This document shows positions 21,265-43,452 of a stretch of 64,000 nucleotides of DNA, piece after piece. A program made the position numbers and the translations under genes. Origin of the DNA: a virus. Each line of letters opens with the position of its first letter. Positions within the stretch are counted from its first letter, which is position 1. The notes beneath the pieces are model-generated. The model searched no databases. It was not told the DNA's origin and saw only the letters and a program-made list of their open reading frames with translations. Where the stretch lies: the IMG/VR virus record IMGVR_UViG_3300025450_000013; one strand, written 5' to 3'.

Positions 21265-21339
21265 TGGAGCGGAGACTGTGTAATCGAAACACAGATTCCA
21301 AGGTGGGAACCTTGGGTAATACCTTTATACGACCTCCGC
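21265..21339 (-). tRNA. non-canonical tRNA-Gly-like RNA, copy A (6-nt anticodon loop, 6-bp T-stem)
   Basis: GCGGAGG-TC-GTATAAAGGTATTAC-C-CAAGG-TTCCCA-CCTTG-GAAT-CTGTGT-TTCGATT-ACACAG-TCTCCGC-T-CCA; ATAAATA late promoter at 21366-21372. Confidence 0.8.
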
Positions 21340-21376
21340 GAGGCACACTTGTCTGGGGACAAATCTATTTATGCTA

Positions 21377-21670
21377 CTAGAACCAACTACCTGGAGGAAC
21401 TGGATAAAATGGAAAGTTTGGGTTTCCTTTAGGTAAACAACAAACCTCAACCTTTATATTATCAGAGTCCAGTAGATCAAAGATCGAAATAATCTTATCA
21501 CTTTTCTTTTTAGGTGATTCAGGTGGTGGTGGAGGTCCGAACAAACTAGTGGTGACTTTAGATTTACCAAAGACACCATCTAGCATTTGACCTTTACCAG
21601 CACCACCCACACCATTAGCATAAGCATTAGTATAGAGCAAAACAAATGCTATGGCAAGTAGGTATTTCAC
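21377..21670 (-). CDS. hypothetical secreted protein
   Basis: Signal peptide, poly-Pro stretch. Confidence 0.5.
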   Translation of the reverse strand: MKYLLAIAFVLLYTNAYANGVGGAGKGQMLDGVFGKSKVTTSLFGPPPPPESPKKKSDKIISIFDLLDSDNIKVEVCCLPKGNPNFPFYPVPPGSWF

Positions 21671-21927
21671 TATGCTAATCCTGTTCCATCATGTTCTACA
21701 ACATCAGGTAGTTTAATGGAACCATCGGCATGACGTTCCTTCTTTTTGCGGTCAACACCAACAAAGTTTTCCGGATGCTTTAGTATTTCAGCAAGGAACT
21801 TAACAAACTCTGCTAGCTCTTCCTTGTTATACTTTGCACCAAGTTTTCCATCTTCCCTTAGATATGCCGTCAATAAACAATAAGTTTCATTTACACAGGC
21901 ATAAGATACTTTGTCATTTACAACCAT
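21670..21927 (-). CDS. hypothetical protein
   Basis: AGGA SD and packing. Confidence 0.55.
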   Translation of the reverse strand: MVVNDKVSYACVNETYCLLTAYLREDGKLGAKYNKEELAEFVKFLAEILKHPENFVGVDRKKKERHADGSIKLPDVVEHDGTGLA

Positions 21928-21935
21928 TTTTTATC

Positions 21936-22100
21936 CTAACATTTAAAGTTTATTACCGCATCTTTCCATTCACCATCCATCGGCACCTTGGCGGCAACCT
22001 GACGCAAATGGCAAACCTTTGGTTCTACCTTCAGCTGGTGCGTTTGACACTCACCTGAGGACAGACAAATACTAATAACTGCGAATACTAACTCTTTCAT
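21936..22100 (-). CDS. 54-aa hypothetical protein (below ORF-track cutoff)
   Basis: MKELVFAVISICLSSGECQTH...NFKC* with an AGGA SD. Confidence 0.5.
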   Translation of the reverse strand: MKELVFAVISICLSSGECQTHQLKVEPKVCHLRQVAAKVPMDGEWKDAVINFKC

Positions 22101-22334
22101 ATTACTTTCCTTATAATAAGAATAGTAAACCTACATAAAGAAGACCTACTATTACTCCGATTATAGTCGGCCAGAGAAGTTTATTCTCCTTGAGACTGTG
22201 AGACGGCTCGGTGGTAGTATCGCTCAAAGATACTAAGTCTGTCTTCTTCCGAATAACAGTCGGGAATTGGATAACCTTTGACTTTTTCCCAGACATGTTC
22301 AGCCATCTCCAATGTAAACTGTTTATCTTTATCC

Positions 22335-22556
22335 TCAGAGGATTGCGTAGAGTCCAACTGCCACTCCAAGGGTAAAAGGAATCATATTGCTAATTAGAAC
22401 AACACCAAGGGCCGTCATAAACAATCCTGTATGTGTCTCTTCTTGTTCATCTGTCTCTTCGTGTTCTGCCACATTAGCATAAACCATACCCTTGATGAAG
22501 GTATTTACAAATACGCTGATGGCGATGGAAGAGATTATTAGTAGAATAAGAAACAT
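22335..22556 (-). CDS. hypothetical membrane protein
   Basis: Two hydrophobic segments, AGGAG SD, late promoter at 22574-22580. Confidence 0.55.
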   Translation of the reverse strand: MFLILLIISSIAISVFVNTFIKGMVYANVAEHEETDEQEETHTGLFMTALGVVLISNMIPFTLGVAVGLYAIL

Positions 22557-22702
22557 GTTTTCTCCTGTTTGTTTATTTAGTATAACGTTCCTGCTGTATT
22601 ACATTTTGGACATGCTCATATCGGGCACCCTCAAAAAGCAATATTAGTCCTATTTCACCAAGAATGATGAAAGCAAATACCCAACATAGTGTAGTAATCC
22701 AT

Positions 22703-22999
22703 TTAGTCATTTTTTTCACCTTTATAGATATACATCTTCTTTCGTTCGTCAGAAAGTTCTATTAGATAATCATTCTCTTTATCAAAGATTTTTAGATACT
22801 CTTCTTCCGAGATTTCACGATAAGAGAAGATGTCCTCACCAACATGGTTTTGGGCAAACTCGGTTAATCCTATCTCTGCGCCAGTAGCATGGTCGGTCAC
22901 AGTATCAAGGGCCCACTCAATTTCACCATCATCAGGTACCTCTACGGCATACATATGACGAAAGGTGGCCACGGTTTCTACCAATACAATCTTAGGCAT
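22703..22999 (-). CDS. hypothetical protein
   Basis: GGAG SD and packing. Confidence 0.6.
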   Translation of the reverse strand: MPKIVLVETVATFRHMYAVEVPDDGEIEWALDTVTDHATGAEIGLTEFAQNHVGEDIFSYREISEEEYLKIFDKENDYLIELSDERKKMYIYKGEKND

Positions 23000-23000
23000 T

Positions 23001-23798
23001 TTATATCTCCGCTATTAGAACAGGATCAACTAAACTTCTTTCATTAGGATAACCGAATGGATTACACACAACTCTTGTTTCTCCGATTTTATAATCAAAA
23101 GCATTATGTGTATGACCATGGATCCATAGTTTTACATTATCAGTCATCATATGCTCCAGATCCGAAGCATACAATGTATTCAGTTCTTTATCATCAGCAA
23201 ACCTCTCATGGATGCTTTTCCATGAAGGAGCATGGTGAGTAATAACCACACAAGGTATATCTTTTACTCCTGCACCCGCAAGGATATCTTCTAGATATAT
23301 TCTTGATAGTTTATGTTCTATGTAAGCATCCTGCGGAGAAAACTTACGATAGTTGCCTTTAGCATCACAATACTTGATGACATTAAAATCATTCATGGCA
23401 AACCTTAGTCGGTTGGTCGTCACCGGATTTTGTATATCAGTATTGGTCCAAAGAGTAGATCCAACAAACTTTATACCATCAATAGTCGCACTCTCGTTAT
23501 CAAGAAAATGTAGGTTCTTATACTCAGCAAGAGCATTACGAAGAATATCGGCACTCTTGTTGAATGTGCCTTTATAGTGTTCATGATTGCCCATGATATA
23601 GATAACGTCCTTGAAGTTGGCACAGACCTCATCAAAGAACGTATAGTAACCAAGATTGTTTATATTGCGTTCTTTATTCTTAAAGGCCTTGGCAAGGCAA
23701 ATGTCGCCAGCCAGTACCAGCACATCCGCACCGGCATTGGGAATATGGACGTTATGTCCAAACTCAAGGTGAAGGTCTGATGCTATCTGTATCTTCAC
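23001..23798 (-). CDS. calcineurin-like metallophosphoesterase
   Basis: SDLHLE, AGD, GNHEHY, THHAP, HGHTH, NP.GY. Confidence 0.9.
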   Translation of the reverse strand: MKIQIASDLHLEFGHNVHIPNAGADVLVLAGDICLAKAFKNKERNINNLGYYTFFDEVCANFKDVIYIMGNHEHYKGTFNKSADILRNALAEYKNLHFLDNESATIDGIKFVGSTLWTNTDIQNPVTTNRLRFAMNDFNVIKYCDAKGNYRKFSPQDAYIEHKLSRIYLEDILAGAGVKDIPCVVITHHAPSWKSIHERFADDKELNTLYASDLEHMMTDNVKLWIHGHTHNAFDYKIGETRVVCNPFGYPNERSLVDPVLIAEI

Positions 23799-23991
23799 TT
23801 GCTTCTCCTGTTATTCCCATTTTATGGAGCCAAAGATTGTAATCGGTTCTAGACATGTAGTCTCTAAGCACTCTCTCAATAGCGTGACAGACACCATCCT
23901 CTTCTGGATTGTTTAGCATAATTTCATAGTATCCTTGTAAGTCCTGAACAACTATGGAACTTATTATGTGTCCTTCAATTTCTATTTTCAT
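23764..23991 (-). CDS. hypothetical protein
   Basis: Part of an array of small early genes. Confidence 0.5.
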   Translation of the reverse strand: MKIEIEGHIISSIVVQDLQGYYEIMLNNPEEDGVCHAIERVLRDYMSRTDYNLWLHKMGITGEASEDTDSIRPSP

Positions 23992-23992
23992 C

Positions 23993-24250
23993 TTATAGTC
24001 TCCTCAGGGTTTCTTTCACACTCAACCATTCTTGGTATTGGTCATTGGTAGAAAAGTAGTTTATAACCAAATCAAGAGCATTTAGGAACTCATCATCCGG
24101 AGGAATCGTCTCATCCGAACAATCATACTTATCAGGCTCACAGTTGATACGATAGGCGTCTTTTAGTGACTCCACTACGATTTCATCTTTTTGGCTATCG
24201 TTTAGTTTAATATCAACATCAACATTTACTTTCATCTTATTCATCCTCAT
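23993..24250 (-). CDS. hypothetical protein
   Basis: Part of an array of small early genes. Confidence 0.55.
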   Translation of the reverse strand: MRMNKMKVNVDVDIKLNDSQKDEIVVESLKDAYRINCEPDKYDCSDETIPPDDEFLNALDLVINYFSTNDQYQEWLSVKETLRRL

Positions 24251-24515
24251 CTTGGAATGGTATTGGTCTTAGAGTGTCCTGTGCCTTCATTAGTATCTCA
24301 GAAAGGGCCATACGATATTTGAAACCATCATCCTCTAACTTAGCAATATGGTCGTTATTTTCTCTTATCGTTTTGAGTGCTTCACGCATACGGCCTTTCC
24401 AAAAATCTATTTCTGCTGCTTGTGTCTCAATAGTGTCGGCGGCTTCTCCAAGCATTTTCATTCCGCTTGTAGTATGTCCAAGGCGCAGTCGTTCAAGCAA
24501 TGGTATGTCAGTCAT
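24237..24515 (-). CDS. hypothetical coiled-coil protein
   Basis: MTD...RLR...EAADTIETQA motif, shared with its neighbour. Confidence 0.6.
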   Translation of the reverse strand: MTDIPLLERLRLGHTTSGMKMLGEAADTIETQAAEIDFWKGRMREALKTIRENNDHIAKLEDDGFKYRMALSEILMKAQDTLRPIPFQDEDE

Positions 24516-24735
24516 CCTTCTCTCCTAATGTTTTACGAGCTTGGCGTATGCGTTCCATCACTTCGCTATCAGAGAAGTTATCGCCTAGTTCAGCAAACGG
24601 TTTCAGCGCCTTCTCCAGTTCCTCAATCCGCTTTGCTTGTGTCTCAATAGCGTCAGCGGCTTCATTGAGGAAATCTACATACATATTTTCGGCATGTTCC
24701 CGCAATCGCGTCACAAGGTCTGTATAGTCAGTCAT
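24508..24735 (-). CDS. hypothetical coiled-coil protein
   Basis: MTD...RLR...EAADAIETQA motif. Confidence 0.6.
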   Translation of the reverse strand: MTDYTDLVTRLREHAENMYVDFLNEAADAIETQAKRIEELEKALKPFAELGDNFSDSEVMERIRQARKTLGEKDD

Positions 24736-25624: not shown

Positions 25625-25658
25625 AATGTATTCCTTTTTCAGTTTCATTTTATAACAT

Positions 25659-25779: not shown

Positions 25780-25831
25780 TTAAAATGATCTATAAATGGG
25801 TCAGGAGACGGTCATATGATCTGTTTATAGA

Positions 25832-26095: not shown

Positions 26096-27100
26096 TCATA
26101 TCAAGTTCTCCAAAAACTGGTCTGTCGCCGCTTCCCAAGAGAAATGTTTTGCTCTTTTTACGGCATCTTTTCTATCTAACATATGGGCACCAATAATGGC
26201 CTCTTCCAAGTCGTTATCATGTAATACACCAGAAACATTATGTTCAATAATATATTCATTCACATCATTACGGAAGGCAGCAACAGGAAGACCTGATGCC
26301 ATACCTTCTAACACAACCAATCCAAACGTATCAGTCAAAGAAGGCCAGGCAAATACATCATGCTTTCTCAACTCATTGGCAATCTCATACTTATTCTTTT
26401 TACCAAGAAAGTTCACATTAGGATACTTTGCTTTGTATTCTTCCAGTTGTGGTCCATCACCAATGAGTGTCTTGCGTATCCAACCATTCTTGATAGATAA
26501 AAATGCCTCAAGGTTCTTTTCAGCCGATATACGACCAACATAAACTGCCTTGATAGGACCATTCTTGTCCCGACTTTCTGGGTCAATACAAGGACTAAAC
26601 AAAGATGTATCTACTCCTCGTGTCCAGACCTTGGTTTTCTTTATACCGAGTTTAGCACAGTAATCAACCATGGCGGGGGTAGGTACCAAAATATTATGGC
26701 TGTTTCTATGAAACCAACGAAAATACTTGCCAGTAACTCTTGGTGAAATATAAGCATGTTCATACAAATAATCCGGAAACTTAGTATGGAAACTTGTAGT
26801 GTATTTTCGTTTTTGTTTTTTACAGGTGTATCTGGCGGCAAGTCCTATTGCTCCTTCTGTTGCGATGTGGACATGGTCAGCATCCCTCAAAGCCTCCTCA
26901 ACCAAACCAATAGGAAAAATAGGCATATAAATGCCAGTAGAAGGCTGTAGTGGTACAGTCAAACTATATTGGTCTGGCCCAATAATAGAAACTTCATAAC
27001 CTTTTTCTATCAAACATTTTTTCGTCATCTCAATAGTAGTTTTTACACCATTTATTTGCTTTTCACTTGAGGCATCGGAAAATATAACAATCTTAGTCAT
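26096..27100 (-). CDS. GT4 (GT-B) glycosyltransferase
   Basis: QINGV, HIATEG.IG, VGRISAEKNL, PSLTDTFGLV.LE.MASGLPV. Confidence 0.9.
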   Translation of the reverse strand: MTKIVIFSDASSEKQINGVKTTIEMTKKCLIEKGYEVSIIGPDQYSLTVPLQPSTGIYMPIFPIGLVEEALRDADHVHIATEGAIGLAARYTCKKQKRKYTTSFHTKFPDYLYEHAYISPRVTGKYFRWFHRNSHNILVPTPAMVDYCAKLGIKKTKVWTRGVDTSLFSPCIDPESRDKNGPIKAVYVGRISAEKNLEAFLSIKNGWIRKTLIGDGPQLEEYKAKYPNVNFLGKKNKYEIANELRKHDVFAWPSLTDTFGLVVLEGMASGLPVAAFRNDVNEYIIEHNVSGVLHDNDLEEAIIGAHMLDRKDAVKRAKHFSWEAATDQFLENLI

Positions 27101-27708
27101 TTCTTTACTCTTCCTAATATCCATTCTTCACCTGGACATTCTTTTGATTGTTTGTTTTTTACACCATTATTCCACCACTTGAAACCTGCTCGGCGTCTAT
27201 TGGATTCAGCAACTACACTTGATAGTTTTTCTCGGTGTTCTTTTGATTGCCAAACATGATTACCAGAATCAGATAACTCTTTCTGTTTTTTCTCACTTCT
27301 TTTAGAAAAACTTTTTCTATTCTTTTCAGATTGTGCTGGATGTTTACCTTCTTTAGCCAACTTTTTTAGTCGGTTGCTATTTATTTCAGCAACCATAGAA
27401 ACAAAATCTGGGTCAAGAAAACGATGTTCTCCACTTTTTACCTTTTCCATTTCACGGAGAGAAGCAATCTCTGACTTTTCTTCTGGTGTAAGGGATACGT
27501 GTCCTGTAGTCAGCATTGCCCAACAAGAACCCCAATCACCCTGACTTTTATGGATGTTGTAGTGTTCTTGTGAAGTAACACATTTTAGGTTATCTATATT
27601 ATTATTTGTGTGGTCACCATCTATATGGTGAATGTGGTGTCCCTTTGGAATAGGACCGTGATGTTGTTCATAAATACGACGATAAATACGATTACGATAA
27701 ATAGTCAT
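27097..27708 (-). mobile_element. free-standing HNH homing endonuclease
   Basis: IHHIDGDHTNN...NL......H HNH motif, basic G.H repeats, WWNNG C-terminal motif; inserted between the phosphoesterase and GT4 genes. Confidence 0.8.
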
Positions 27709-27777
27709 AGGCTGGTGCTCCCAAATAGCATTAGAGTCCGTAGGTGTTAGCGCACCGTGACGGACAGTCCTATTTAG
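27709..27777 (-). promoter_or_regulatory. late promoter and structured leader of the HNH gene
   Basis: CTAAATA; GTCCGT..ACGGAC hairpin; TGCT..AGCA hairpin overlapping the GGAG SD. Confidence 0.55.
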
Positions 27778-27791
27778 TAAACCATCGTTTT

Positions 27792-28535
27792 TCATAGATA
27801 ACATATAATCTCAAACTCACCTGAGTAATGTTCCACTATTGCGGTACAGGACTCTACCCAATCACCGCAGTTTATGTATTGGACTCCTTGTATGTCTTTC
27901 ATAGCCGCTTGGTGGATGTGGCCACAAATAACGCCATCAGCGTGTCTTTTAGAAGCGGCATCAGCAACAACATTTTCATAATCTCCTATAAAGTTTACGG
28001 CTTCTTTTACGTGGTGCTTCGCCCACGCGGACAGGGAGAACCCAGGTATTCCTAAAGTTCTTGTTATCCATTGAATCTTACCATTCAGACCAATCATAGC
28101 ATCATACAACACTCCGCCGATATAGGCAAGCCACTTGGCGTTCATGGTAACAATATCAAACTGATCTCCATGTATAACAATATATTTCTTTCCATCTACA
28201 CCATAATGTATGGCCTCATCCACAAGTTGGATGTTTCCGAATACGATTCCAGAATGTTCTCTAAGGAACTCATCGTGGTTACCGGTCACATAGGTAACGG
28301 TAGCGGCCTTTTTGGATTGTTTGAGGAAGAACTGAATAACATTATTATGGGCCTGTGGCCAATAAACCTTTTTACGCATCATCCAACCGTCAATAATATC
28401 ACCTACAAGGTAATAATGGTCTGCTTCGGTTGATTTTAAAAAGTTTAGTAGGAGTTCTGCGTTTGAATATTTGGTTCCTAAATGTAGGTCCGAAATAAAA
28501 ATAGAACGGTACTTTACTCGGTCTTTATGTTTCAA
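27792..28535 (-). CDS. LpxH-like (UDP-2,3-diacylglucosamine hydrolase family) metallophosphoesterase
   Basis: SDLHLG, VGDIIDGW, GNHD, HGDQFD, CGHIH, N.GDWVES. Confidence 0.85.
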   Translation of the reverse strand: MKHKDRVKYRSIFISDLHLGTKYSNAELLLNFLKSTEADHYYLVGDIIDGWMMRKKVYWPQAHNNVIQFFLKQSKKAATVTYVTGNHDEFLREHSGIVFGNIQLVDEAIHYGVDGKKYIVIHGDQFDIVTMNAKWLAYIGGVLYDAMIGLNGKIQWITRTLGIPGFSLSAWAKHHVKEAVNFIGDYENVVADAASKRHADGVICGHIHQAAMKDIQGVQYINCGDWVESCTAIVEHYSGEFEIICYL

Positions 28536-28581
28536 AACAACCTCTCTGGTTAGGAGACCTATTATTTATTGCTTTGCAACA

Positions 28582-29532
28582 TTAACCGTTTTGTGACGGT
28601 TTCATACTTTCCATAATATCATCTAAAGTATATTGTGGATAGTAACCTAATAGTTCTTTTAGTTTAGTGTTATCAGCAACAAGATAAGGAACGTCACCAT
28701 CTCGGCGTTCTTTATACTCTATTCTCATTTCACCATTATGTAATACGTCGTTGGCCTTATCAACAACCTCTTTCACAGAATAACCTTTACCAGAACCTAT
28801 ATTGAGGACGATGTTGGTATTATCCAAGAAGTTTATGTATTCATAGGCCGCGATATGTGTTCGGCAAATATCAATCACATGAACATAATCACGAATAGCA
28901 GTTCCGTCTACCGTAGGATAATCATCACCATATATTGTGGCAGTTTTATTCTTTGCCAATAGTGGAATCAGATGTGTTTCAGGATCATGTTCTTCATAGA
29001 GGTTGGCCTCTACGTTTCTACCGCAGGCATTGAAATATCTTAGGCGTGCCACATTCATATCGTTGACACCTTCAAGGATAGTTTCGCACATAGCCTTAGA
29101 CTTACCATAAACAGAAACAGGATTCATCGGTTGTGACTCCAACAAATGACCAAACATTTGACTTTTGGACTCACCATACACCGCAGCCGTAGATGAAAAG
29201 ATAAAGTTTCTTATCTTACATCTTTTTGCCATATCAATGGTGTTTAAGGTGGCTCCGATGTTGTTTCTATAATATGACCAAGGGTCTCTTTCCCCTTCTT
29301 CCACTGAGATATATGCTGCGAAATGGAAGAGGCAATCGACTTCTCCTCTTGAGAAATAAGCGGTGTTGAGAGAAAGATCAACACAGCTAAAAGCATCATA
29401 AAGATGCCGCAAATGCGGTCTAACATTTTTATCTACTCCTATGATAAAGCAATCCGGATAGGTTCGCTTTAGTTCATAGCACATATGACTGCCAATGTAA
29501 CCGTTACAGCCTGTGACTACAAATTTTTTCAT
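28582..29532 (-). CDS. galE: UDP-glucose 4-epimerase
   Basis: TG..GYIGSH, FSSTAAVYG, YGKSK, LRYFNACG, DGT.IRDYVHV. Confidence 0.9.
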   Translation of the reverse strand: MKKFVVTGCNGYIGSHMCYELKRTYPDCFIIGVDKNVRPHLRHLYDAFSCVDLSLNTAYFSRGEVDCLFHFAAYISVEEGERDPWSYYRNNIGATLNTIDMAKRCKIRNFIFSSTAAVYGESKSQMFGHLLESQPMNPVSVYGKSKAMCETILEGVNDMNVARLRYFNACGRNVEANLYEEHDPETHLIPLLAKNKTATIYGDDYPTVDGTAIRDYVHVIDICRTHIAAYEYINFLDNTNIVLNIGSGKGYSVKEVVDKANDVLHNGEMRIEYKERRDGDVPYLVADNTKLKELLGYYPQYTLDDIMESMKPSQNG

Positions 29533-30116
29533 TTGATTGCTATTAGTTTTAGAACCGCACCTCTTGCTGGTTCTGGGTTACGTTCATCATCTTCACGGTA
29601 AATCCCCGTGAATCCTGCTTCTTGTAAAAGATTAACCAATGACTTCTCACAGAAACCATTAATGTGGCCCATACCTGGTATTCTATATTCTTCTGGATGA
29701 CGCCAACCACCAAATAGATAGTCCATGGCATTCTCCCAAGGATCTTCATGTCTATTCAACCATTCAACATTAGCCTTTTCTTTCCAGTCACCGTGGACAA
29801 TACGTTCCATAATCCACATAACATCTGGGCAGGTGATCTCAAATGTACCACCTGGTTTTAGAATACGATGAATTTCTTTCAATACATCTGGAACCGCAAA
29901 GTGGAGCAAATGTTCTATAACATCTCCAAGATAAATTTTCTCTGCGGTGTTATCTTCATACGGATATGGAATGTTATGAAGGTCATGGACTTTTGTTGTG
30001 CTAGGCCATTGATGAATGTCCATACGATCTGTTGAATCTGGTTTAGGATGTGGTCCTGCACCAATGTCAAGAATAAATTTATCTGGTTTTTCTATTATGA
30101 GTTTAACTTCATCCAT
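29529..30116 (-). CDS. class I SAM-dependent methyltransferase
   Basis: LDIGAG, VIEHL, EIHRILKPGG. Confidence 0.8.
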   Translation of the reverse strand: MDEVKLIIEKPDKFILDIGAGPHPKPDSTDRMDIHQWPSTTKVHDLHNIPYPYEDNTAEKIYLGDVIEHLLHFAVPDVLKEIHRILKPGGTFEITCPDVMWIMERIVHGDWKEKANVEWLNRHEDPWENAMDYLFGGWRHPEEYRIPGMGHINGFCEKSLVNLLQEAGFTGIYREDDERNPEPARGAVLKLIAIK

Positions 30117-31086
30117 TTAGAGCATCCTTAATGCAAAGACGTAAACTGTCATTAACTTTCATCTGTGCTTCCCAACCAAGGAGTTCCTTGGCCTTTGTTA
30201 CATCAGGCACACGATGGCGAACATCATTAAGATATCCTGGTTTATGGTCAAAGGTCATAGCATAATCAAACTGACATCCAAACTCAGTGGTTGCGATAAC
30301 ACGGATTCTTCGTGCTAAGTCCTTCATGCTTATTGGTTCATAGTTGCCAAGATTAAAGGCCTGACCGTTTGTCTTAGCGGAGAATGAATGTGTAGCAATA
30401 GCCTCTGCTACCTCATCAATCCATGTGAAGCAACGGATCTGCTCACCATCACCAAGAATAGGAATATTATTGGAACGTTTGACTATAATCTCATGCATAA
30501 AGTCAGCAAATACGTGGGAAATACCTTGCTGACCTTCCGTTCGCTCATAAGGAGTTAGAACATTGAATGGACGCCAAATGGTATATTCAACACCATATTG
30601 CTTTTTAAAAGCAATCGACATCTTTTCACCAACAAACTTGGAAAGGCCATACTCGGTGTAAGGAGCAATCACCTGATCAACATCATCTTCCTTAACTGTA
30701 CCTTCACAGTTCTCATACACCATAGACGATGAGGTATAAACAACTTTGGAGACGCCGTGGTCTACTGCGGCCTTGAGGACGTTATTATGTAGTGCTAGGT
30801 CTTCACCGAGAATATCGGCACAATACTTATTAAATCCACCAACACCATAGATACGGGCGGCCGCCTGGATGATTAGGTCTGGTTGAACTGATTTGACAAG
30901 AGCATTTACCGATGGACGATCTGTAAGGTCGATTTTGCGGAACTCATAACCTTCACCAGCAATACCAAGACGCTCACCATAACGGCAAAGATTATCTGCA
31001 CCATACACAGCATGTTTATCTCGTAGCAGTTTAGGAATAACTGCCTGCATCAATGACCCTTCCGAGCCGCATACTAATACTTTCAT
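30109..31086 (-). CDS. NAD-dependent NDP-sugar epimerase/dehydratase/decarboxylase
   Basis: SSSMVYE, YGLSK, RPFN, GDGEQIRCFT. Confidence 0.85.
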   Translation of the reverse strand: MKVLVCGSEGSLMQAVIPKLLRDKHAVYGADNLCRYGERLGIAGEGYEFRKIDLTDRPSVNALVKSVQPDLIIQAAARIYGVGGFNKYCADILGEDLALHNNVLKAAVDHGVSKVVYTSSSMVYENCEGTVKEDDVDQVIAPYTEYGLSKFVGEKMSIAFKKQYGVEYTIWRPFNVLTPYERTEGQQGISHVFADFMHEIIVKRSNNIPILGDGEQIRCFTWIDEVAEAIATHSFSAKTNGQAFNLGNYEPISMKDLARRIRVIATTEFGCQFDYAMTFDHKPGYLNDVRHRVPDVTKAKELLGWEAQMKVNDSLRLCIKDALNG

Positions 31087-32315
31087 TTAACATCTCCAAC
31101 TTTATAAATGCCTGTCTTACTTAGTTTACTTTCTGGATACATTTTCCAGAGGTCGGCAACAATACAATCTTTTCTAAACCAATCTAGAGGCCATTCTGAA
31201 TCCATACCTGTGTGTGGAGTCATTACAATAACCGCATCCACCTCTTGAGGTATCATCCATGTATCTGCTTTGATAAATGGATCCCACATATCTGATTCAA
31301 CACCATGCTTCTTACACACCTTACGCATTTTATATGAAAGACTGTTGCGTGTATCATCACAGTCCTTCTTGAATGTAGCACCTAGAATAAGGACCTTATC
31401 GATGTTCGGGTTGATATCCTTAATGCGATTAAACACATAATCTGGCATACCTTCATTAATAAGAAAGCTAGTGTTAATAAGATCGCCAAAGGGAATGTCA
31501 CTAAGCAAGAAACGGCCGTCTTTGAAGAGGCAAGGGCCTCCAACATTAGGACCTGGATGAGGCACATCCATTCTAGGATAATCATAGTTACATGCGTCAA
31601 TAACTTTGTCGATGTTGATGCCATGTTTCTCTCCAATCATCCACATTTCATTAGCAAAGGCAAAGGTTACATAACGATACATGTTAGTCATCAACTTACC
31701 AAGTTCCGCTTCTTTTGGTGAAAGGTGAAAAACTTTATTCTTGATAAAACTGTTAAAGAATAATGCGGCCTGTAAGTAAGACTCCTCACTAAAGGCACCG
31801 ACAATCTGCGGTAGTTTTGTTGTTTCAATAATAGAACGGCCTTGAACCACTCGTTCTGGGCAGAATACAAGATAATAATCTTCACCTTCTATCCAACCAT
31901 GGTTCTTCTCAATATGCTTACGAAGAACCTCTGTCGTACCAGGTGATACCGTAGAACGAAGGACAATCAACTGTCCTTTTCTCATGCGAGGAATAAGAGT
32001 ATCATCAACAAAATTAAAAAGGTCATCAAGACGGGCATTACCTTCTCCATCAACTGGCGTACCAATCATAATTGCAACTACATCAGAGTCCTTGATGAAA
32101 TCAAAATCGGTGGTAAAAAGGATTCTATCTTTCTTTAGATTGATTTTAAGAATATCTTCACCACCTTCTTCCGCATAAGGTGTGATACCAGCATTTAGTT
32201 TATCAACGGCATCTTGATTGATATCAATACCATATACATTATGACCTGCTTCGGCCACGACACAGGCAAATGGAAATCCTACGTGCCCGCCGGCACCGAT
32301 AACTGATACTTTCAT
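31083..32315 (-). CDS. UDP-glucose/GDP-mannose (UDP-ManNAc) dehydrogenase family
   Basis: GAGGHVG, GTP, RSTVSPGTT, PERV, AE..KL..N, GGPCL.KD, FK...DD.RNS. Confidence 0.9.
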   Translation of the reverse strand: MKVSVIGAGGHVGFPFACVVAEAGHNVYGIDINQDAVDKLNAGITPYAEEGGEDILKINLKKDRILFTTDFDFIKDSDVVAIMIGTPVDGEGNARLDDLFNFVDDTLIPRMRKGQLIVLRSTVSPGTTEVLRKHIEKNHGWIEGEDYYLVFCPERVVQGRSIIETTKLPQIVGAFSEESYLQAALFFNSFIKNKVFHLSPKEAELGKLMTNMYRYVTFAFANEMWMIGEKHGINIDKVIDACNYDYPRMDVPHPGPNVGGPCLFKDGRFLLSDIPFGDLINTSFLINEGMPDYVFNRIKDINPNIDKVLILGATFKKDCDDTRNSLSYKMRKVCKKHGVESDMWDPFIKADTWMIPQEVDAVIVMTPHTGMDSEWPLDWFRKDCIVADLWKMYPESKLSKTGIYKVGDVK

Positions 32316-33256
32316 TATTTTGTCTCCAATAAAACATCCTCTATGTCATTACAGGTATCTTGGATGGTGTGGTTTGCCATGACATAGTTATAGGCACTAT
32401 CAATCTTTTCTTCATCTCTCTTATGATTACGGAGAAGTTCCATCAACTCCTTTTCATCTTTATAAGTGGTGCCATAATAGCACATATCTTTGGCACCGGC
32501 AATATCTCTGGCGTACCATGGAGTTTTATTCATCATAGCCTCAAGAAGAACAAGCCCAAATCCTTCCTCATAGGAGTTCATAATGTAAGCATCGGCCGAA
32601 GAAATAGAAAATAAAACATCCGTCTTGGATTTACCAAAGAAACATTTGACCGCATCATTCTCGGCAGGCATCAAATGTTCCTCACCGTATCCATATAGAT
32701 GGAGTTCTGCATTAGGAATCTTGGCCTTAGTAAATGCTTCGGCGAGAGGACCCATTGCTTTATGTGAATAAAAACCACCGGCAGAAACAAAGATAGTTTT
32801 TGTTTTATCAAGATTTAGTCTAACATATGCTACTTGCTCAATACCATGCCGAATACGACGACCTTTTTCTAACACATTATGTTTTCTAAGATGATCAATA
32901 TCCATGCTGGTAGAGTAACCAAGGAATCGGTGATGTTTTAGACCATGAACACACATCTGACTGTCGCTTGGTTTTACAATTAGATAAAGAACAGGAGATT
33001 TTATTCTATCAGCATTTAGATGAACGATATTCTGTGCCTGAACATCACCACCATGAACGATGATAAGGTCCCACTTTTCACCTAATGAATAGAAATCATC
33101 CAGAACCTTTACACCATTATAATCACCTTGGTTTGTAGGTGCCAAAACGAACACTTCATGCCCTCGTTTAAGCATTTCTTCGGCCATATTCTGGACATAA
33201 TACTCACTACCACCAGGATATGGAGCATAACGGTGAACCACAAATAATATTTTCAT
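32315..33256 (-). CDS. GT4 glycosyltransferase
   Basis: GGSE, EGFGLVLLEAM. Confidence 0.85.
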   Translation of the reverse strand: MKILFVVHRYAPYPGGSEYYVQNMAEEMLKRGHEVFVLAPTNQGDYNGVKVLDDFYSLGEKWDLIIVHGGDVQAQNIVHLNADRIKSPVLYLIVKPSDSQMCVHGLKHHRFLGYSTSMDIDHLRKHNVLEKGRRIRHGIEQVAYVRLNLDKTKTIFVSAGGFYSHKAMGPLAEAFTKAKIPNAELHLYGYGEEHLMPAENDAVKCFFGKSKTDVLFSISSADAYIMNSYEEGFGLVLLEAMMNKTPWYARDIAGAKDMCYYGTTYKDEKELMELLRNHKRDEEKIDSAYNYVMANHTIQDTCNDIEDVLLETK

Positions 33257-34167
33257 TTACCACCCATTACAAATGTTTCCCACCAATCACATAGGTTATT
33301 TAAATCGGTGAACTCATTAGGAATATCATTTTTAAATACAGTTCTCTCTATCTTATCTAGGTACTCTTGTTTACCAGCAGGAGAATCCAAATGTCTAATA
33401 TAGTCCACAACATCATCTAAGGTTTTAAAATTATGAACATTAATAAAGGCCTCGGTATTAAAGTCACGATTAACCGTTGGGCTACCCCAATAAATCGGCA
33501 TTGTCTTGGTCTGGAATGCGTTTAGAATTTTCTCTGTAACATAACCAGGATAAGAACCATTCTCAAAGCAAATGTTAAACCTATAGTTGTTGAGAAACTC
33601 CAGTTTATATTTTAACTTATCTCTTGGTAGAATGGCATTCATGTTGTTTAGATGTGGCCCAGCCGAGTGTACCTTTTTATATTGACTTGTAAGGTGGAAC
33701 ATGGCATTCCGCATCTCTTGTCTAGGATTAGATACAACAAAAGAACAGAAATCTCTGTTATCATAATCTTTTTCATAGTCGTGTACCACATTTTTAATCT
33801 GGTAAAAATCATCTGTCCATCCTTCTTGGACAGCACCATGCATATCAACCACATAAAGTGGTAGACGATAATGCCTTGATGTGTTTAGGTGATCAAATGT
33901 AATTGCAAAGTGAGCCTTATCTAAAGGAGGACGAACATTCTCACCTGTAAATGCGATAGTCACCATATTAGGATTTTTAAATTGACTCCAATTATAATGA
34001 CTATCAGTATAAAAACTCTGATTAGGATTCAAATCACCAAATATTAGGTAATCAGGATTCTTATCATCTCTCTTTACATCAAATCTACGGCCTAATGCTT
34101 CCATAAAAAAGTTTTCGGCCGTAGAAAATGAATATATGAATCCAAGTTTAAGAGGTTTTTTCATCAT
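33253..34167 (-). CDS. GT10 alpha-1,3-fucosyltransferase-like
   Basis: TGENVRP, FCSFVVSNP, K.EFL..YRFNICFEN...GYVTEKI..AF...PIYWG. Confidence 0.85.
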   Translation of the reverse strand: MMKKPLKLGFIYSFSTAENFFMEALGRRFDVKRDDKNPDYLIFGDLNPNQSFYTDSHYNWSQFKNPNMVTIAFTGENVRPPLDKAHFAITFDHLNTSRHYRLPLYVVDMHGAVQEGWTDDFYQIKNVVHDYEKDYDNRDFCSFVVSNPRQEMRNAMFHLTSQYKKVHSAGPHLNNMNAILPRDKLKYKLEFLNNYRFNICFENGSYPGYVTEKILNAFQTKTMPIYWGSPTVNRDFNTEAFINVHNFKTLDDVVDYIRHLDSPAGKQEYLDKIERTVFKNDIPNEFTDLNNLCDWWETFVMGGK

Positions 34168-34760
34168 TTATACCAGAAGAAGGTTGAGTTAGTTGATAGG
34201 TTAATAGGTGCTGTAATACCATTCTTTGTGCGGAAATCGTTTACTGCTTTATTAACATTTTGAATAGAAGAATAATCATGCCCACTAAACAATCCACCTT
34301 TTTTTAATAAAGGATAATATGCTTCACAGTCCGATAATGTAGCATCATATGAATGATCACCATCAACAAAGATAAAATCAAACTCCGCTTTATCTGTAAT
34401 GGTTTTAATTTTAGATGCAGCATCAATAGATGTTTCACGGATCATTTGCGCGCGATCACCATATTGTTTTAGGTTCTTTTGTGCAATATCTAGGAACTTA
34501 TCAATTGTATCTTGTGTAATCTCACCGTTCCAATCTTCATACGCCTTATATGGATCAATGGTGTATAGTTTAACAATGTTTGGGCATTTATCCAATAGAA
34601 ATGCTGTAGACTCGGCACGACATGTACCGATCTCAACACCAACTACGTTTTCACCAAGTCGTTTGATATAAGGTGCTAAACCTTTTACCGAAACCCATTC
34701 ATAAGGCCACTTATCACCAAGTTCCTCAATAGTCTTGAAATCATCTTCTCCTAAAGCCAT
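34164..34760 (-). CDS. class I SAM methyltransferase (Methyltransf_24-like)
   Basis: VEIG, IDPY, DFIFVDGDHSY, GG...GHDY. Confidence 0.85.
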   Translation of the reverse strand: MALGEDDFKTIEELGDKWPYEWVSVKGLAPYIKRLGENVVGVEIGTCRAESTAFLLDKCPNIVKLYTIDPYKAYEDWNGEITQDTIDKFLDIAQKNLKQYGDRAQMIRETSIDAASKIKTITDKAEFDFIFVDGDHSYDATLSDCEAYYPLLKKGGLFSGHDYSSIQNVNKAVNDFRTKNGITAPINLSTNSTFFWYK

Positions 34761-34761
34761 C

Positions 34762-35658
34762 TTAATCTCCGTATTTGTTTTCTACTAATTCTTTCCAAAT
34801 AGGAACCCTATCCCACTGGTGAACAACTGTTGCCTTTTTACTATTGGCATAAATCTCGTTATCTGTTACATTATAGTCTATTTGTTTAACAAATGGCAAG
34901 ACCATCATAGGATTATTCCTATATGCCTCACCAATACCACCTGAACCAGCCTTGATAGCAGGTAAAGATGTACCAGCATGAATAACCCATCCATCGGTAG
35001 GATTAGTAAAATTTGTCTGGATTGTATAAGCGTCGGTTTGTAATAGGATGTTTAGAGCAGCCTGATCTGGTCCTCCACCACCGGGAACATGTGGATTAAG
35101 ACCATGACAAATTAACCAAACATTTAGAGCAAGATCACGCATAGCATTTCTTTTTCCTGCAATAACACCTGCACAATAGATTTCATTATCACCATGAGTT
35201 TCCAAGAAATAAGGACCGAATGCCTGTTGGAGATTGTTACAACCCCAAGGTTCATCTTTATACTTTAGATTTTCGGAACCAACAATAATTTGATTATCAT
35301 TATTGTTTAACCATTTTGATGGATCACTTTGAAATACCACATCACGAACATCTGTCATAATAACATTATTAACAGGTTCACTTAATACGTTTAGAAAACC
35401 ATATAGATGAAAGAAACGGTCAACCATGACAGAACCTTTGGAATTATCATGTTTAAATCCAGTCTTTTCATCATATTGGCCACAACCAATTAGCATAAAC
35501 TCTTCATCAGTAAGTTTCTTTACCGTTTCTGTGTCCATATTATAAACGATAAGAGCCTTATGACCTGTAAAACCGGACTTCTTAATAGAGTTGGCCCAAT
35601 ACTTAATCTTATCCCATTTATAGTTATCAACTACACCTACAATTAAATCTTTTGCCAT
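34762..35658 (-). CDS. putative GT-A glycosyltransferase
   Basis: RFF, TDVRDV.FQ, DQAALN, HQWDR. Confidence 0.6.
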   Translation of the reverse strand: MAKDLIVGVVDNYKWDKIKYWANSIKKSGFTGHKALIVYNMDTETVKKLTDEEFMLIGCGQYDEKTGFKHDNSKGSVMVDRFFHLYGFLNVLSEPVNNVIMTDVRDVVFQSDPSKWLNNNDNQIIVGSENLKYKDEPWGCNNLQQAFGPYFLETHGDNEIYCAGVIAGKRNAMRDLALNVWLICHGLNPHVPGGGGPDQAALNILLQTDAYTIQTNFTNPTDGWVIHAGTSLPAIKAGSGGIGEAYRNNPMMVLPFVKQIDYNVTDNEIYANSKKATVVHQWDRVPIWKELVENKYGD

Positions 35659-36389: not shown

Positions 36390-36405
36390 AACATCCTATA
36401 AAGAA

Positions 36406-36434: not shown

Positions 36435-36447
36435 GTGTTATACTTAC

Positions 36448-38747: not shown

Positions 38748-38761
38748 AATATACTCCAATA

Positions 38762-39548: not shown

Positions 39549-40483
39549 TACTTGACCTCACATTCCACCATCATTTCAGTTAGACAGGCCACTAGGTTCA
39601 ACTCTTGGTCTGCCACAAATGCTGCCTGATACTGATACTTGGCAAGGGTTATGACCGCAGCAGGAATGGATTCTGGTTTCAGATACTCATACAAACCATC
39701 ATACACATCACGGAAGATTTTTGCTGGATCAACATCAGAGTTATTTACAACCCACTTACGCATAGCACCAAAGTCTTTCTCCTTTAGTGCCTTGATAAGT
39801 TCTTCCAGTTTTCTTACATTGTCAACTTGAGCAAGAACACCAGCATCAATAGTTCCGCCAGAAGAATAACGTTGTATCTCGTTGAGAGTTCGGCGGTAAT
39901 CTGGGAAATACCGCGAAACAATCTTTCCCAAAACGTTGGCATCGTATTCAATTCCCTCTGTTACTAATATTGTTTTTAGTCTTTTGAACATCTCCATTGC
40001 CATCTTGGCCTTCTCATCACCTTTGAGTGAGAAGTCAACAACGGCACAACGAGAATGTAGAGCATCAATCAGCCTTGCCTTAAAGTTACAGGTGAAGATA
40101 AAGGAACAGTTGTCACTAAACTCCTCAATAGCCCCACGAAGTCCCGCCTGGGCCTCTGGTGTAAGATAATCAGCCTCATCAAGGATGATAACCTTACGAC
40201 CACCTGTAAGAGAGATGGTTGAGGCATAACCTTTGATCTTGGTTCTCAACATATCAATACCACGTTCATCAGAACTATTGATAAAGAGATGGTTGAGACC
40301 AAGTTCTTCACACATGGCCTTGGCGATGGTGGTCTTGCCGCAACCGGCAGGACCAGTTAGCATTAGGTTGGGTATGTTACCCTCTTTCACATAATCCTGA
40401 AATACCTTTTTGATACGATATGGCAGGATGGTGTCCTCGACCTTATGAGGACGATAGCGTTCGCATAACAAATATTCACTCAT
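39548..40483 (-). CDS. gp44: clamp loader large subunit gp44
   Basis: E.YRP, GPAGCGKTT, DEADY, LHSRC, FPD.RR. Confidence 0.95.
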   Translation of the reverse strand: MSEYLLCERYRPHKVEDTILPYRIKKVFQDYVKEGNIPNLMLTGPAGCGKTTIAKAMCEELGLNHLFINSSDERGIDMLRTKIKGYASTISLTGGRKVIILDEADYLTPEAQAGLRGAIEEFSDNCSFIFTCNFKARLIDALHSRCAVVDFSLKGDEKAKMAMEMFKRLKTILVTEGIEYDANVLGKIVSRYFPDYRRTLNEIQRYSSGGTIDAGVLAQVDNVRKLEELIKALKEKDFGAMRKWVVNNSDVDPAKIFRDVYDGLYEYLKPESIPAAVITLAKYQYQAAFVADQELNLVACLTEMMVECEVK

Positions 40484-40779
40484 TAAGATGCCGTCTTTTC
40501 CATAACAGTGGTGTAAAACTCTTCAAAGTCCGTATTCTCTTGAACCTCTTCTTTGAAGTTGGCACGGAAGTAGGCCCTTGACATACGGCGGAACAACTTC
40601 TTATCAATACCGAGTTTGTCGGCAACCTCATTCGTGGTTTCTTTTTGTAGTTCACGTTCGGCACCAACACGGGTCATGGAGTCATTCATCTCCATAACTG
40701 CCTTGCGGAGGATCTTACGATCTTCATCTGTAAGGCCTTGAACCGACCGTTGCTGCTGGTTATGTCCAATCATACTCAT
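40483..40779 (-). CDS. DsbA-like dsDNA-binding protein
   Basis: ~98-aa helical protein with LGIDKK.F....R.Y pattern as in T4 DsbA. Confidence 0.55.
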   Translation of the reverse strand: MSMIGHNQQQRSVQGLTDEDRKILRKAVMEMNDSMTRVGAERELQKETTNEVADKLGIDKKLFRRMSRAYFRANFKEEVQENTDFEEFYTTVMEKTAS

Positions 40780-40976
40780 TAGTCCACCTCAATAATCGCA
40801 CTAGGGTTAATACAAACATATCCATTTGCTGCTACAACGGCAACACCGCCGCCGTCTTTACATTTTTGGATATACAGTTCATGCAGAGAAACATTGTTAG
40901 CAATCACATAAACAAATGCCACAATGGTGGCACCTGTAAATGTCATTAACAGAACATCATAGATTTTCTTACTCAT
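40779..40976 (-). CDS. small membrane protein
   Basis: One TM segment, C..GG....C. Confidence 0.5.
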   Translation of the reverse strand: MSKKIYDVLLMTFTGATIVAFVYVIANNVSLHELYIQKCKDGGGVAVVAANGYVCINPSAIIEVD

Positions 40977-41632
40977 TATTTTGTTTCCTGAGCAATGAAG
41001 TATTTAAGATTACCTGCCTTGTTCACGAACTTGGCAAAGGCACCAATCTGTAGTTCCACATCATAGTCATCAGGAATGAGTTTTAGGTTCTCACTCTTGA
41101 AGGTTGCGATAAAGTCCTTACCAGCATAGTCACCAATCTTTGTAGAACCGTGGTTGGACGTGTCATTTGCTTTCTCGTGGATCTTTAGCAACAGAGATGC
41201 ATCCTTACCAACTACCGATAGGTGTGGAAGGTTGTTCATCGAGGCCAACTTTAGCAACCGTGAGATAGAAGCATTTAACAAGGTAAAAGATACATCAACA
41301 TTCTTGATTGATAGTTCCTTATCGGCAGGTGGTGTAATGATAAGATTAGGAGAACAAGGAAGATACGTCAAGGTAAAGTCACCTTCAGTCATAGACACGG
41401 AGTCGGTGCTAAATGTGATTTCAGGATTGCGTAAGGTTGTAATGTTACCTAGAAAGTTATTCAGATCATAGATGCCGAACTGTTGTGGGATATCATCTTC
41501 AAGAGTTGCCTCAAGGAGAATGGATCGTTCCGATGACATGGTCTTCTGAACCTTGCCAGGATTAAGAACAACACCGCTATTGATATTGGCAAAGTTCTTT
41601 AGAACCGTTAAGGTATTTTCACTAAACTTCAT
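40976..41632 (-). CDS. gp45: sliding clamp gp45
   Basis: MK.S..T..VLKNFA.IN, FGIYDL..FL, NLK.IP.DY.V. Confidence 0.95.
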   Translation of the reverse strand: MKFSENTLTVLKNFANINSGVVLNPGKVQKTMSSERSILLEATLEDDIPQQFGIYDLNNFLGNITTLRNPEITFSTDSVSMTEGDFTLTYLPCSPNLIITPPADKELSIKNVDVSFTLLNASISRLLKLASMNNLPHLSVVGKDASLLLKIHEKANDTSNHGSTKIGDYAGKDFIATFKSENLKLIPDDYDVELQIGAFAKFVNKAGNLKYFIAQETK

Positions 41633-41645
41633 ATTATACTCCTTA

Positions 41646-42245
41646 TCATATTGTCAAACTATAATATATACTAGCATCTTTATCGTTTTGTGTCAAGATG
41701 GTTTTTATATTTTCTTTTAGATCATTCACTGTTCCTTCATTGTGAATAATAAAATCTGGAACATAGTTATTCCATGCCGTCTCTGATATATGCATCTTGG
41801 AAAGTTCTTCTGGAGATGGGTCATCACCTCGTTTTACTCGGATAATCTTACCGCCGGCACTCCGAATAAAATCAATCTCATTAGGAAAACGAGTATCGGA
41901 TATAACCACATCTTGATATCCTTGTATGCGTTTCTCTAAGGCTGCAATCCAGATGTTATCTGCAATATTGTCTCGGCATGCCTCACTACCCATTTTTTGT
42001 AGAATAAGGCGAGGTGTAACCTCGTATCCAAGTTTATTAGACCACCAGGGGTCAACACGTTCACGAAAGGCCCGTGAAGCGTTACTATCACCTTCCAAAA
42101 GACCCCGTGGCCATACAAAGATGGAAGCCACGGCATCTTTTAGAGCATCGGCAAAGGCAAACTTTTTGTAACCATAATCTCTTTCGAGAATGTCACCTAC
42201 TGTGCCTTTGCCGGAACCAATGTAACCGACAACGCCGATTATCAC
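41646..42245 (-). CDS. gp1: deoxynucleoside monophosphate kinase gp1
   Basis: G.IGSGK.T, FAD.LKD, TPR..LQ..G.E, D.RFPNE, H.SE. Confidence 0.9.
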   Translation of the reverse strand: MIIGVVGYIGSGKGTVGDILERDYGYKKFAFADALKDAVASIFVWPRGLLEGDSNASRAFRERVDPWWSNKLGYEVTPRLILQKMGSEACRDNIADNIWIAALEKRIQGYQDVVISDTRFPNEIDFIRSAGGKIIRVKRGDDPSPEELSKMHISETAWNNYVPDFIIHNEGTVNDLKENIKTILTQNDKDASIYYSLTI

Positions 42246-43048
42246 CGCAAATTACCGCTCAATGCTGCTACTGCTGGAAGGTCACCCTGGAACCCATATG
42301 TACCAACGTGTGTTGTCTTCATCCATGGGCATAACCACACTTTAACACCGATAGCTCGGGCATTCTGACAGAACATATAGTCCTCAGAAAGGTAACGATG
42401 TGATTGTGGATCAATGACTGTATCAAAGAAAGCATGAATGTATCGTGAACCATCAAAGTTAGCTTGACCAACGTGGTCTGGCTTATAGTGAAGGTGTGGA
42501 TATTCTTCAGCATACTTATCAAATACTTCACGTTTCACCAACATAAATCCTGTACCAATCTCCATAACCTCAACTGGTTCAGTTACCTTGAATGATGTGG
42601 TACCTGGAACTGGGTTAAACACGAAGTCACCTGTAACACCGTCAAGCATACCAGGTTCAAACTCTTTATTATCCACATTCTTTTTTACAGCATTGACAAT
42701 GTTAGACCAGTTAATTGACTTCTTTGGATATGGACCACCGATGATTTCTTTATCCAAAGCCAATAAAGCAAGAATGTCCTGTGGATTAAACTGGATATCG
42801 GAGTCAATAAACAATAGATGGGTGCAACCTGAACGGAGGAACTCATCAACAAGGTAGTTTCGTGCCCTAGTAATAAGGGACTCATTAAAGATAAATGAGA
42901 ATCGGCATTCCATACCATATTGGATGCAGGTTGCTTGAAGGTCGAGACAGGCTTTAGCATACAAACCGAAGCATTGGCCTCCGTAGCACGGCGTGGCCAC
43001 AAATAATTTTTTTTGACGCAAGGATTCGGTTGAAATCTTAATTTCCAT
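42242..43048 (-). CDS. GT-A-like glycosyltransferase-related protein
   Basis: ATP.YGG, ESLITRARN, FIDSDI (DxD), GTGFML, YLSEDY.FC. Confidence 0.7.
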   Translation of the reverse strand: MEIKISTESLRQKKLFVATPCYGGQCFGLYAKACLDLQATCIQYGMECRFSFIFNESLITRARNYLVDEFLRSGCTHLLFIDSDIQFNPQDILALLALDKEIIGGPYPKKSINWSNIVNAVKKNVDNKEFEPGMLDGVTGDFVFNPVPGTTSFKVTEPVEVMEIGTGFMLVKREVFDKYAEEYPHLHYKPDHVGQANFDGSRYIHAFFDTVIDPQSHRYLSEDYMFCQNARAIGVKVWLCPWMKTTHVGTYGFQGDLPAVAALSGNLR

Positions 43049-43119
43049 AATGTTCTCCATAAACAAAAAGGGACGTGACAAGGTGCCACATCCCTATATA
43101 GCATACTTTTTAGAAAGTA

Positions 43120-43341
43120 TTACTGAGCAAGGCGATAGAAAGCGGTGCGCTTACCGTCAACATTGCGGTAGTTGGTGTAAATGTTGTAATACTCACGAAG
43201 GTCGGAAACTCGCTTACCAACGTTCTCACGAGGAACACGGGCCAACTTGGCGATTGAGTCCGCCGTGATACCTGGTGACTTCGTGTTCTTTAGAAGAACA
43301 TTTTCAATCTTCTCAATTTGTGTCTTACGTGGTGTAGCCAT
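43120..43341 (-). CDS. winged helix-turn-helix DNA-binding protein
   Basis: TADSIAKLARVPRENVGKRVSDLR HTH followed by a beta-wing. Confidence 0.65.
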   Translation of the reverse strand: MATPRKTQIEKIENVLLKNTKSPGITADSIAKLARVPRENVGKRVSDLREYYNIYTNYRNVDGKRTAFYRLAQ

Positions 43342-43380
43342 AATATATACTTCCTTTTTCATAGTTAAGTTTCGTCGTTT

Positions 43381-43452
43381 TGGAGCGGAGACTGTGTAAT
43401 CGAAACACAGATTCCAGGGGGGACCTGGGTAATACCTTTATACGATCTCCGC
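43381..43452 (-). tRNA. non-canonical tRNA-Gly-like RNA, copy B (truncated anticodon arm, 6-bp T-stem)
   Basis: GCGGAGA-TC-GTATAAAGGTATTAC-C-CAGG-TCCCC-CCTG-GAAT-CTGTGT-TTCGATT-ACACAG-TCTCCGC-T-CCA. Confidence 0.8.

Follow-up and report, generated by a model that had tools for sequence, protein, structure and literature searches.

Two aberrant tRNA-Gly-like genes of a T4-like phage as candidate private glycyl donors for a DUF4338/DruA-family protein

Why would a phage keep two glycine tRNA-like genes that look fit for charging but not for decoding? The question is raised by IMGVR_UViG_3300025450_000013, a viral sequence of 64,000 nucleotides (nt) analysed here as a whole (the window), which is a segment of a T4-like phage with gp23, a family-B polymerase, a SbcC-like gp46 and a DnaB-like helicase. 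Two tRNA-Gly-like elements, copy A and copy B (Table 1), had been predicted in it from the letters alone, with a role either as glycyl donors or as decoys. Both elements are real and are missed by default annotation. In our assessment they are probably non-decoding, private glycyl donors for a phage DUF4338 enzyme encoded near copy B. This assessment is based on the conserved structure of the RNAs, on a statistical tie of such RNAs to Mom and DUF4338 genes, and on the modelled GNAT fold of the enzyme.

The position, strand and anatomy of both copies are as the original prediction described them. A and B are 92% identical (E 1.6e-20), with a next-best match in the window of 10 nt, and both fold into cloverleaves (z −3.9 and −3.8) that none of 200 shuffled sequences equals in stability. 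Their D arms, variable loops (4 nt) and T arms are the same, and their acceptor stems differ solely at position 7. The T-stem consists of six perfect pairs, giving an acceptor-plus-T helix of 13 bp (7/6), and the anticodon loop comprises 6 nt in A and 5 nt in B, compared with the canonical 7-nt loop on a 5-bp stem. In both copies the pair closing the T-loop is U-A and not the usual G53-C61, a G-C pair that relatives retain, whereas G18-G19 and the TTC T-loop are preserved. The bacterial GlyRS identity set is also retained, with G1-C72, C2-G71, G3-C70, U73 and a CC in the anticodon loop, the register of the CC being uncertain in a loop of 5–6 nt. An identical copy of A is present in a relative (L001; L and G designate the related loci and genomes compared here). 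Default ARAGORN misses both copies, in line with the expectation that tRNA finders would balk at them, and Rfam calls neither; under relaxed settings, ARAGORN does name the A-type copy of L001, as a tRNA-?(Gly) with a two-base anticodon. The 13-bp helix had been likened to that of bacterial tRNA-Sec. This kinship was dropped as numerical only: tRNA-Sec has an 8/5 or 9/4 helix, a long variable arm and a UCA anticodon, whereas A and B have a short variable loop, U73 and no UCA, leaving the 13-bp count as the sole common feature.

Orthologues of B occupy the same slot in L002–L005, L007–L009, L154 and L459. The orthologues in L007, L008/L009, L459, L462 and L463 are about 76–83% identical to A, and all of them have the 6-bp T-stem and an anticodon loop of 5–6 nt. 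Across nine distinct orthologous sequences, every one of the 186 stem cells is paired (slid controls, 37–55%; a shuffle test was inflated by the kinship of the sequences). Compensatory changes affect 8 of the 21 pairs and span all four stems, two of the six T-stem pairs among them, and the pair closing the 6-nt loop covaries from G-C to A-U. The 6-bp T-stem is maintained across phages about 20% diverged, whereas the anticodon loop varies in length and sequence and no anticodon is conserved; this is the pattern that the original prediction had proposed to look for. The covariation argues that the structure is under selection and not in decay. The likeness of the two copies, on which the case against decay had first been built, carries less weight. 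Specifically, B alleles in sister contigs have either base at position 7, so the A/B pair may be the product of a recent duplication or of gene conversion, and the two copies by themselves are therefore a weak argument; the evidence against decay is the covariation in other genomes.

Occupancy of the A and B slots is labile. No RNA is present at the B slot of L006, L011–L014 and L018. At the A slot, G001 has another odd copy and G002 a canonical tRNA-Gly; G003 has a canonical copy in the same region. In G002 as in G003, one canonical tRNA-Gly coexists with an odd one. Canonical versions in relatives had been named as a sign of recent decay; of the two slots, only the A slot shows them, as a different canonical tRNA-Gly in two relatives.

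The tie to an enzyme comes from other phages, in which deformed tRNA-Gly genes stand beside genes of the DUF4338 family or of Mom, the Mu protein that moves glycine from Gly-tRNA-Gly to adenine N6 in double-stranded DNA and seems to read the acceptor end (PMC13219725). When the protein was taken as the starting point, a deformed tRNA-Gly was found at most 230 nt from the gene end in 54 of 76 DUF4338 homologous loci (those with enough downstream DNA), against a detector background of 1 in 8,929 other windows. These RNAs typically follow a promoter-like sequence of their own. The 27 distinct ones are 63–69 nt long with shrunken D arms, and all 27 have a CC in the anticodon-arm region. When the RNA was taken as the starting point, in three viral scans that used tRNA patterns and no protein (matches clustered at 85%), a Mom or DUF4338 gene lay within 300 nt of 22 of the 43 clusters with an extra T-arm base and 11 of the 34 with a GUGC T-loop, compared with 1 of the 29 canonical ones (p 9e-6 and 4e-3, respectively, versus the canonical pattern). 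The commonest neighbours in these scans were true Mom genes (8bv8 at E 3e-11, PHROG 1384, PF25680). On long contigs, one or the other enzyme is present in 10/28 odd-pattern records versus 0/21 canonical ones (p 0.003). The link between RNA and enzyme is statistical, not obligatory. With it, the predicted glycyl donor for a tRNA-dependent transferase acquires a concrete candidate partner 4.8 kb from B, for which the gene neighbourhoods of homologues argue strongly.

Several of these loci have unusual arrangements. At many mom loci the tRNA-Gly-like RNA and the beginning of the reading frame overlap. In L099, L101, L103, L121, L155 and many more, the RNA doubles as in-frame coding sequence for the Mom N-terminus (…GSIPTSPLQ), and in some cases the D arm contains the sole ATG. 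Excision of the RNA would consequently leave no intact mom message there, and the arrangement might act as a switch between enzyme and donor. Two different deformed tRNA-Gly genes lie in tandem 55–205 nt after the DUF4338 gene in L034, L063, L066 and L072. In L333/L407, a fully canonical tRNA-Gly(UCC) directly follows the DUF4338 gene, possibly the starting state of the deformed class.

The 419-aa (amino acid) candidate partner belongs to Pfam PF14236 (E 3e-21; 76.2 bits, cut-off 27), the family of DruA, which is classed as a GNAT (PMC10853773). A structure model built with 100 aligned homologues reached a confidence (predicted local distance difference test, pLDDT) of 95; a model built without an alignment (pLDDT 33) was discarded. 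Among 48,161 PDB representatives, the best fold match of the model is Mu Mom (8bv8; Z 9.9, root-mean-square deviation 4.0, 171 aligned residues), and the model has a GNAT fold. The gene is surrounded by phage replication genes (gp46/gp47/gp55 region), and one distant homologue bears the annotation mom. Pfam finds only DruA in this protein, an ESM Atlas search returned DruA-type clusters only, and the Mom motifs HY, ELxR, NSES and AD were not found. A custom hidden Markov model (HMM) detected no Mom-like gene in the window, and neither Fem, MprF nor another GNAT appears among the best 25 Pfam families listed for 55 other window proteins. In five close relatives (three nearly complete; positive control passed), Mom had no match and DUF4338 was present in all five. 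Six further genomes (G022, G024, G028, G029, G031, G033) encode a long and a short DUF4338 paralogue, which lie 17–24 kb apart. We know of no activity for the DUF4338/DruA family.

Taken together, these observations suggest the following sequence of events. A and B would be expressed, processed and charged with glycine by host GlyRS by way of the first acceptor pairs, U73 and the CC of the loop. The first acceptor pairs and U73 belong to the Gly identity set (PMC9976931, PMC9908026), and GlyRS reads C35/C36 and charges acceptor-T minihelices (PMC9908026); charging of A and B is thus plausible, perhaps at a slower rate. The loops of 5–6 nt and the lengthened T-stem would bar them from ribosomal decoding, and the sixth T-stem pair may shift the elbow and so hinder entry into the ribosome. 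That the RNAs are non-decoding, as had been claimed, is probable given these loops and their lack of a conserved anticodon. The DUF4338 protein would take the activated glycine from the Gly-RNA, as Mu Mom does from Gly-tRNA-Gly. The likeliest acceptor would be phage DNA, with protection from restriction as the result; the donor role together with DNA as the target is a more tentative proposal, which we rate a little below an even chance. Since Mu manages with host tRNA, such an RNA would not be required but would help to enlarge or protect the pool of donor.

The closest precedent is found in Staphylococcus aureus, whose non-proteinogenic tRNA-Gly(UCC) species NP1, NP2 and NEW serve as glycine donors for Fem transferases (PMC4574755, PMC3239215). 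Like these, A and B keep Gly identity, would donate to a GNAT-fold transferase and coexist with canonical tRNA-Gly. Unlike these, which serve peptidoglycan, A and B are phage-encoded, no Fem was seen in the window, and the proposed acceptor is DNA. The staphylococcal class has lost G18-G19 and U55-C56, whereas A and B keep both and appear to be disabled through the anticodon loop and the T-stem length instead. Nor do A and B seem to share its weakened hold on EF-Tu, which the original prediction had invoked. The EF-Tu-contacting T-stem of the staphylococcal RNAs is about 1.3 kcal/mol weaker than the tRNA-Gly mean (PMC3239215). In a three-pair model using values from the same study, with the sixth T-stem pair outside the model, the pairs of A and B (C49-G65, U50-A64, G51-C63) sum to a free-energy difference of 0, whereas canonical phage tRNA-Gly has a median of −0.5. 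It is the distant DUF4338-adjacent RNAs that converge on the staphylococcal changes, with no TTC T-loop in any of the 27 and predicted weaker binding to EF-Tu (mean +0.8). A and B would resemble the staphylococcal RNAs in role, yet they fall outside that group by its sequence criteria.

Two further systems are related through the enzyme. Mu Mom (PF25680, 8bv8) has the same GNAT fold, and many of its homologues have a deformed tRNA-Gly beside or inside the gene; however, the window enzyme has about twice its length and resembles it detectably neither in sequence nor in profile, and Mu itself uses host tRNAs. A tRNA-Gly-like “pseudo-tRNA” embedded in a mom homologue of Dehalococcoides ssrA islands has been described without a function (McMurdie 2011, PMC3146451), and the RNAs that overlap mom frames match this locus. 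Like A and B, it is a conserved tRNA-Gly-like locus tied to a Mom-type gene, but it lies inside coding sequence, whereas A and B are two free-standing genes with promoters of their own, another deformation and another enzyme family. DruA of the Druantia system (PF14236, a GNAT per PMC10853773) belongs to the same Pfam family as the window enzyme; the window gene, in contrast, is set among phage replication genes, and no other Druantia gene was noticed. In the openly accessible literature consulted, we found no link of DruA/DUF4338 to tRNA and nothing that functionally ties tRNA-Gly mimics of phages to Mom or DUF4338.

A number of observations weigh against a donor role. On the RNA side, the B orthologues of L462 (144-218) and L463 (299-372) have lost the loop CC, and each belongs to a tRNA cluster in which a canonical tRNA-Gly immediately precedes it. 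G004, a genome that is 100% complete, has the DUF4338 enzyme with two canonical-looking tRNA-Gly genes only, and cyanophage S-SM2 has a distant homologue and no match. On the side of the association, the 54 loci are kin within one large clade and hence not independent events. In the clade of the window itself, the RNA lies 4.3–4.8 kb from the GNAT gene or elsewhere and is not adjacent to it, so that the tie rests on homologues. Neither enzyme is present on 18 of the 28 odd-pattern contigs, many of them fragmentary or mildly odd, which means that not every tRNA variant is linked. Additionally, the acceptor ends of the scanned RNAs were fixed by the search patterns and are not independent evidence. 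On the side of the enzyme, the next fold matches are ordinary GNATs and acetyltransferases at Z 9.1 and 9.0, a tie with Mom (within 1 Z). Foldseek gave nothing under E 0.001 against the PDB, with Mom at ranks 17 and 21. An HMM from the Mom neighbours scores DUF4338 at −1.6, and the profile–profile probability is 0.5%. A glycine-rich GGK loop at the place where GNATs bind coenzyme A (CoA), mapped by eye, is near-invariant in 100 homologues, so the donor of DUF4338 could be an acyl-CoA.

The alternative that fares best, though unlikely, is that the RNAs act independently of DUF4338 as decoys, soaking up host enzymes that read the tRNA-Gly acceptor end (TacT-type GNAT toxins, FaRel2-type pyrophosphokinases) or tRNA-sensing defences. 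The conserved part is indeed the acceptor end, which is read by TacT (U73, G71; PMC9976931) and by FaRel2 (PMC11559606); two copies under strong promoters would give abundance. A canonical tRNA-Gly would, however, be an equally good decoy, and the tie to Mom or DUF4338 genes in three separate enzyme groups would be left unexplained. A decoy for anticodon nucleases, which the original prediction had included, is ruled out, because loop length and sequence vary freely among orthologues.

Slightly less likely still, DUF4338 could be an acetyl-CoA GNAT that acts on Gly-tRNA, as TacT and AtaT do, or on another target, with the RNA as a substrate or an RNA antitoxin and not a donor. The GGK loop, the tied fold scores and the missing profile similarity to Mom all speak for it. 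Against it, RNAs of this kind also lie beside true Mom genes, and the known donor of Mom is Gly-tRNA; the DUF4338 gene, moreover, has its place amid replication genes and a distant homologue annotated as mom.

That A and B are decaying duplicates of an ordinary phage tRNA-Gly, alike through recent duplication or gene conversion, is very improbable. Their near identity, the canonical tRNA-Gly in or near the A slot of G002 and G003, the empty B slots and the two orthologues without CC would fit such a history, which covariation has already largely refuted: no pair is broken, eight are compensated, the 6-bp T-stem persists despite divergence, and the placement beside GNAT genes is non-random. At a marginally lower level stands the view that they are odd decoders or frameshift suppressors, with A redrawn to have an 8-nt loop and B to have a 7-nt loop surrounding CCC on a 4-bp stem. 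In its favour, both copies preserve G18-G19, TTC and a normal EF-Tu triple, and of the Gly codons in the window GGG is used least (17/431); on the other hand, no anticodon is conserved among orthologues and B has no purine at 37. The covarying closing pair of the 6-nt loop excludes the 8-nt frameshift-suppressor drawing. A quadruplet suppressor was rejected. A partnership of A with the QueG-like Fe-S protein, suggested by adjacency on the same strand about 20 nt away, is scarcely credible and was rejected as contradicted by synteny: seven related loci more distant than the near-identical one have another gene upstream and none has the RNA, and the A-slot RNAs of G001 and G002 precede other sequence. 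The gene is probably an incidental neighbour; QueG acts on tRNAs with G34-U35-N36.

The prediction that each copy has its own promoter holds for B, with its perfect sigma70 match, and less well for A. The 7-mer late-promoter motif preceding A occurs no more often than chance predicts (13 in the window versus 24.7 expected) and carries no significance alone, though its core and the leader hairpin recur in relatives (Table 1). In G001 and G002 the A-slot leader is longer (L450:1575-1645, L458:1430-1500) and has complementary TGGGG/CCCCA tracts that could form a pseudoknot; this part is mostly missing in the window. Copy B sits within the leader of the gene for an 80-aa protein, inside a 6-bp leader/trailer stem, and the B-type sigma70 promoter persists in relatives without an RNA at the B slot. 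The −10 box lies inside an inverted repeat (43463-43500), likewise kept in relatives lacking the RNA, which is possibly an operator for the 80-aa protein. Between the terminator of the AAA gene and the B promoter, a multibranch structured element (43528-43650; z −4.8 on the plus strand versus −1.9 on the minus strand) had no match among the related loci compared. Elsewhere, the window has a block of glycosyltransferases, epimerases, a UDP-sugar dehydrogenase and an LpxH-like phosphoesterase (26096-35658), broken by an HNH gene, and a tryptophan-halogenase-like gene (13959-15572).

Table 1. Coordinates of the two tRNA-Gly-like genes, of associated features in the window, and of deformed tRNA-Gly genes in two cultured phages
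Feature	Position	Strand	Remarks
Copy A, tRNA-Gly-like RNA gene	21265..21339	minus	75 nt; 7-bp acceptor stem, U73, encoded CCA, 6-nt anticodon loop, 6-bp T-stem
Copy B, tRNA-Gly-like RNA gene	43381..43452	minus	72 nt; 5-nt anticodon loop, same 6-bp T-stem as A
Possible T4-type late promoter core upstream of A	21366..21372	minus	TAAATA core recurs at the site in L001, L450, L458
Leader hairpin before A	21347..21364	minus	kept at the site in relatives (L001, L450, L458)
QueG/reductive-dehalogenase-like 4Fe-4S protein	20358..21245	minus	directly after A, about 20 nt apart
Sigma70 promoter of B and the 80-aa gene	43487..43515	minus	12/12 match, 17-nt spacer
80-aa basic protein	43120..43362	minus	downstream of B; no family match
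MoxR/CobS-like AAA ATPase	43684..44979	minus	marks conserved slot upstream of B; HTVC008M has the same order
Large PHROG 459 (“peptidase”) protein	45284..47569	minus	between GNAT gene and ATPase
DUF4338/DruA-family GNAT-fold protein, 419 aa	48211..49470	minus	Pfam PF14236; 4.8 kb upstream of B
Deformed tRNA-Gly in HTVC008M	L087:12998-13071		after AAA ATPase gene, same slot as B
Deformed tRNA-Gly in Mosig	L086:15805-15878		overlapped by a 31-aa “hypothetical protein”

The cultured Pelagibacter phages HTVC008M and Mosig each have a DUF4338 enzyme and one deformed tRNA-Gly that is not annotated as RNA (Table 1). Staphylococcal cell-wall synthesis is known to use dedicated non-translating tRNAs, and none was found in the literature for a phage enzyme; a 2026 study of the Mom mechanism assumes that host tRNA is scavenged (PMC13219725). 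New here are a separate structural subtype that shows covariation, a matched control with canonical tRNA-Gly, and cultured phages that carry such RNAs. If A and B are private donors, standard annotation overlooks a widespread class of phage RNA genes, and the position of the RNA hints at the substrate of DUF4338/DruA, which is also part of the Druantia defence. More tentatively, and with slightly less than even confidence, we propose that DUF4338/DruA is a second, hitherto unrecognised family of Gly-tRNA-dependent nucleic-acid modifiers and that phages have repeatedly made private carriers for DUF4338 and Mom by at least three structural routes, namely a short loop with a 6-bp T-stem, a shrunken D arm with an altered T-loop, and a bulged T-stem inside the mom frame. 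If this is true, widespread aquatic T4-like phages, cultured pelagiphages included, would contain an undescribed DNA base, and Druantia DruA would gain a testable chemistry.

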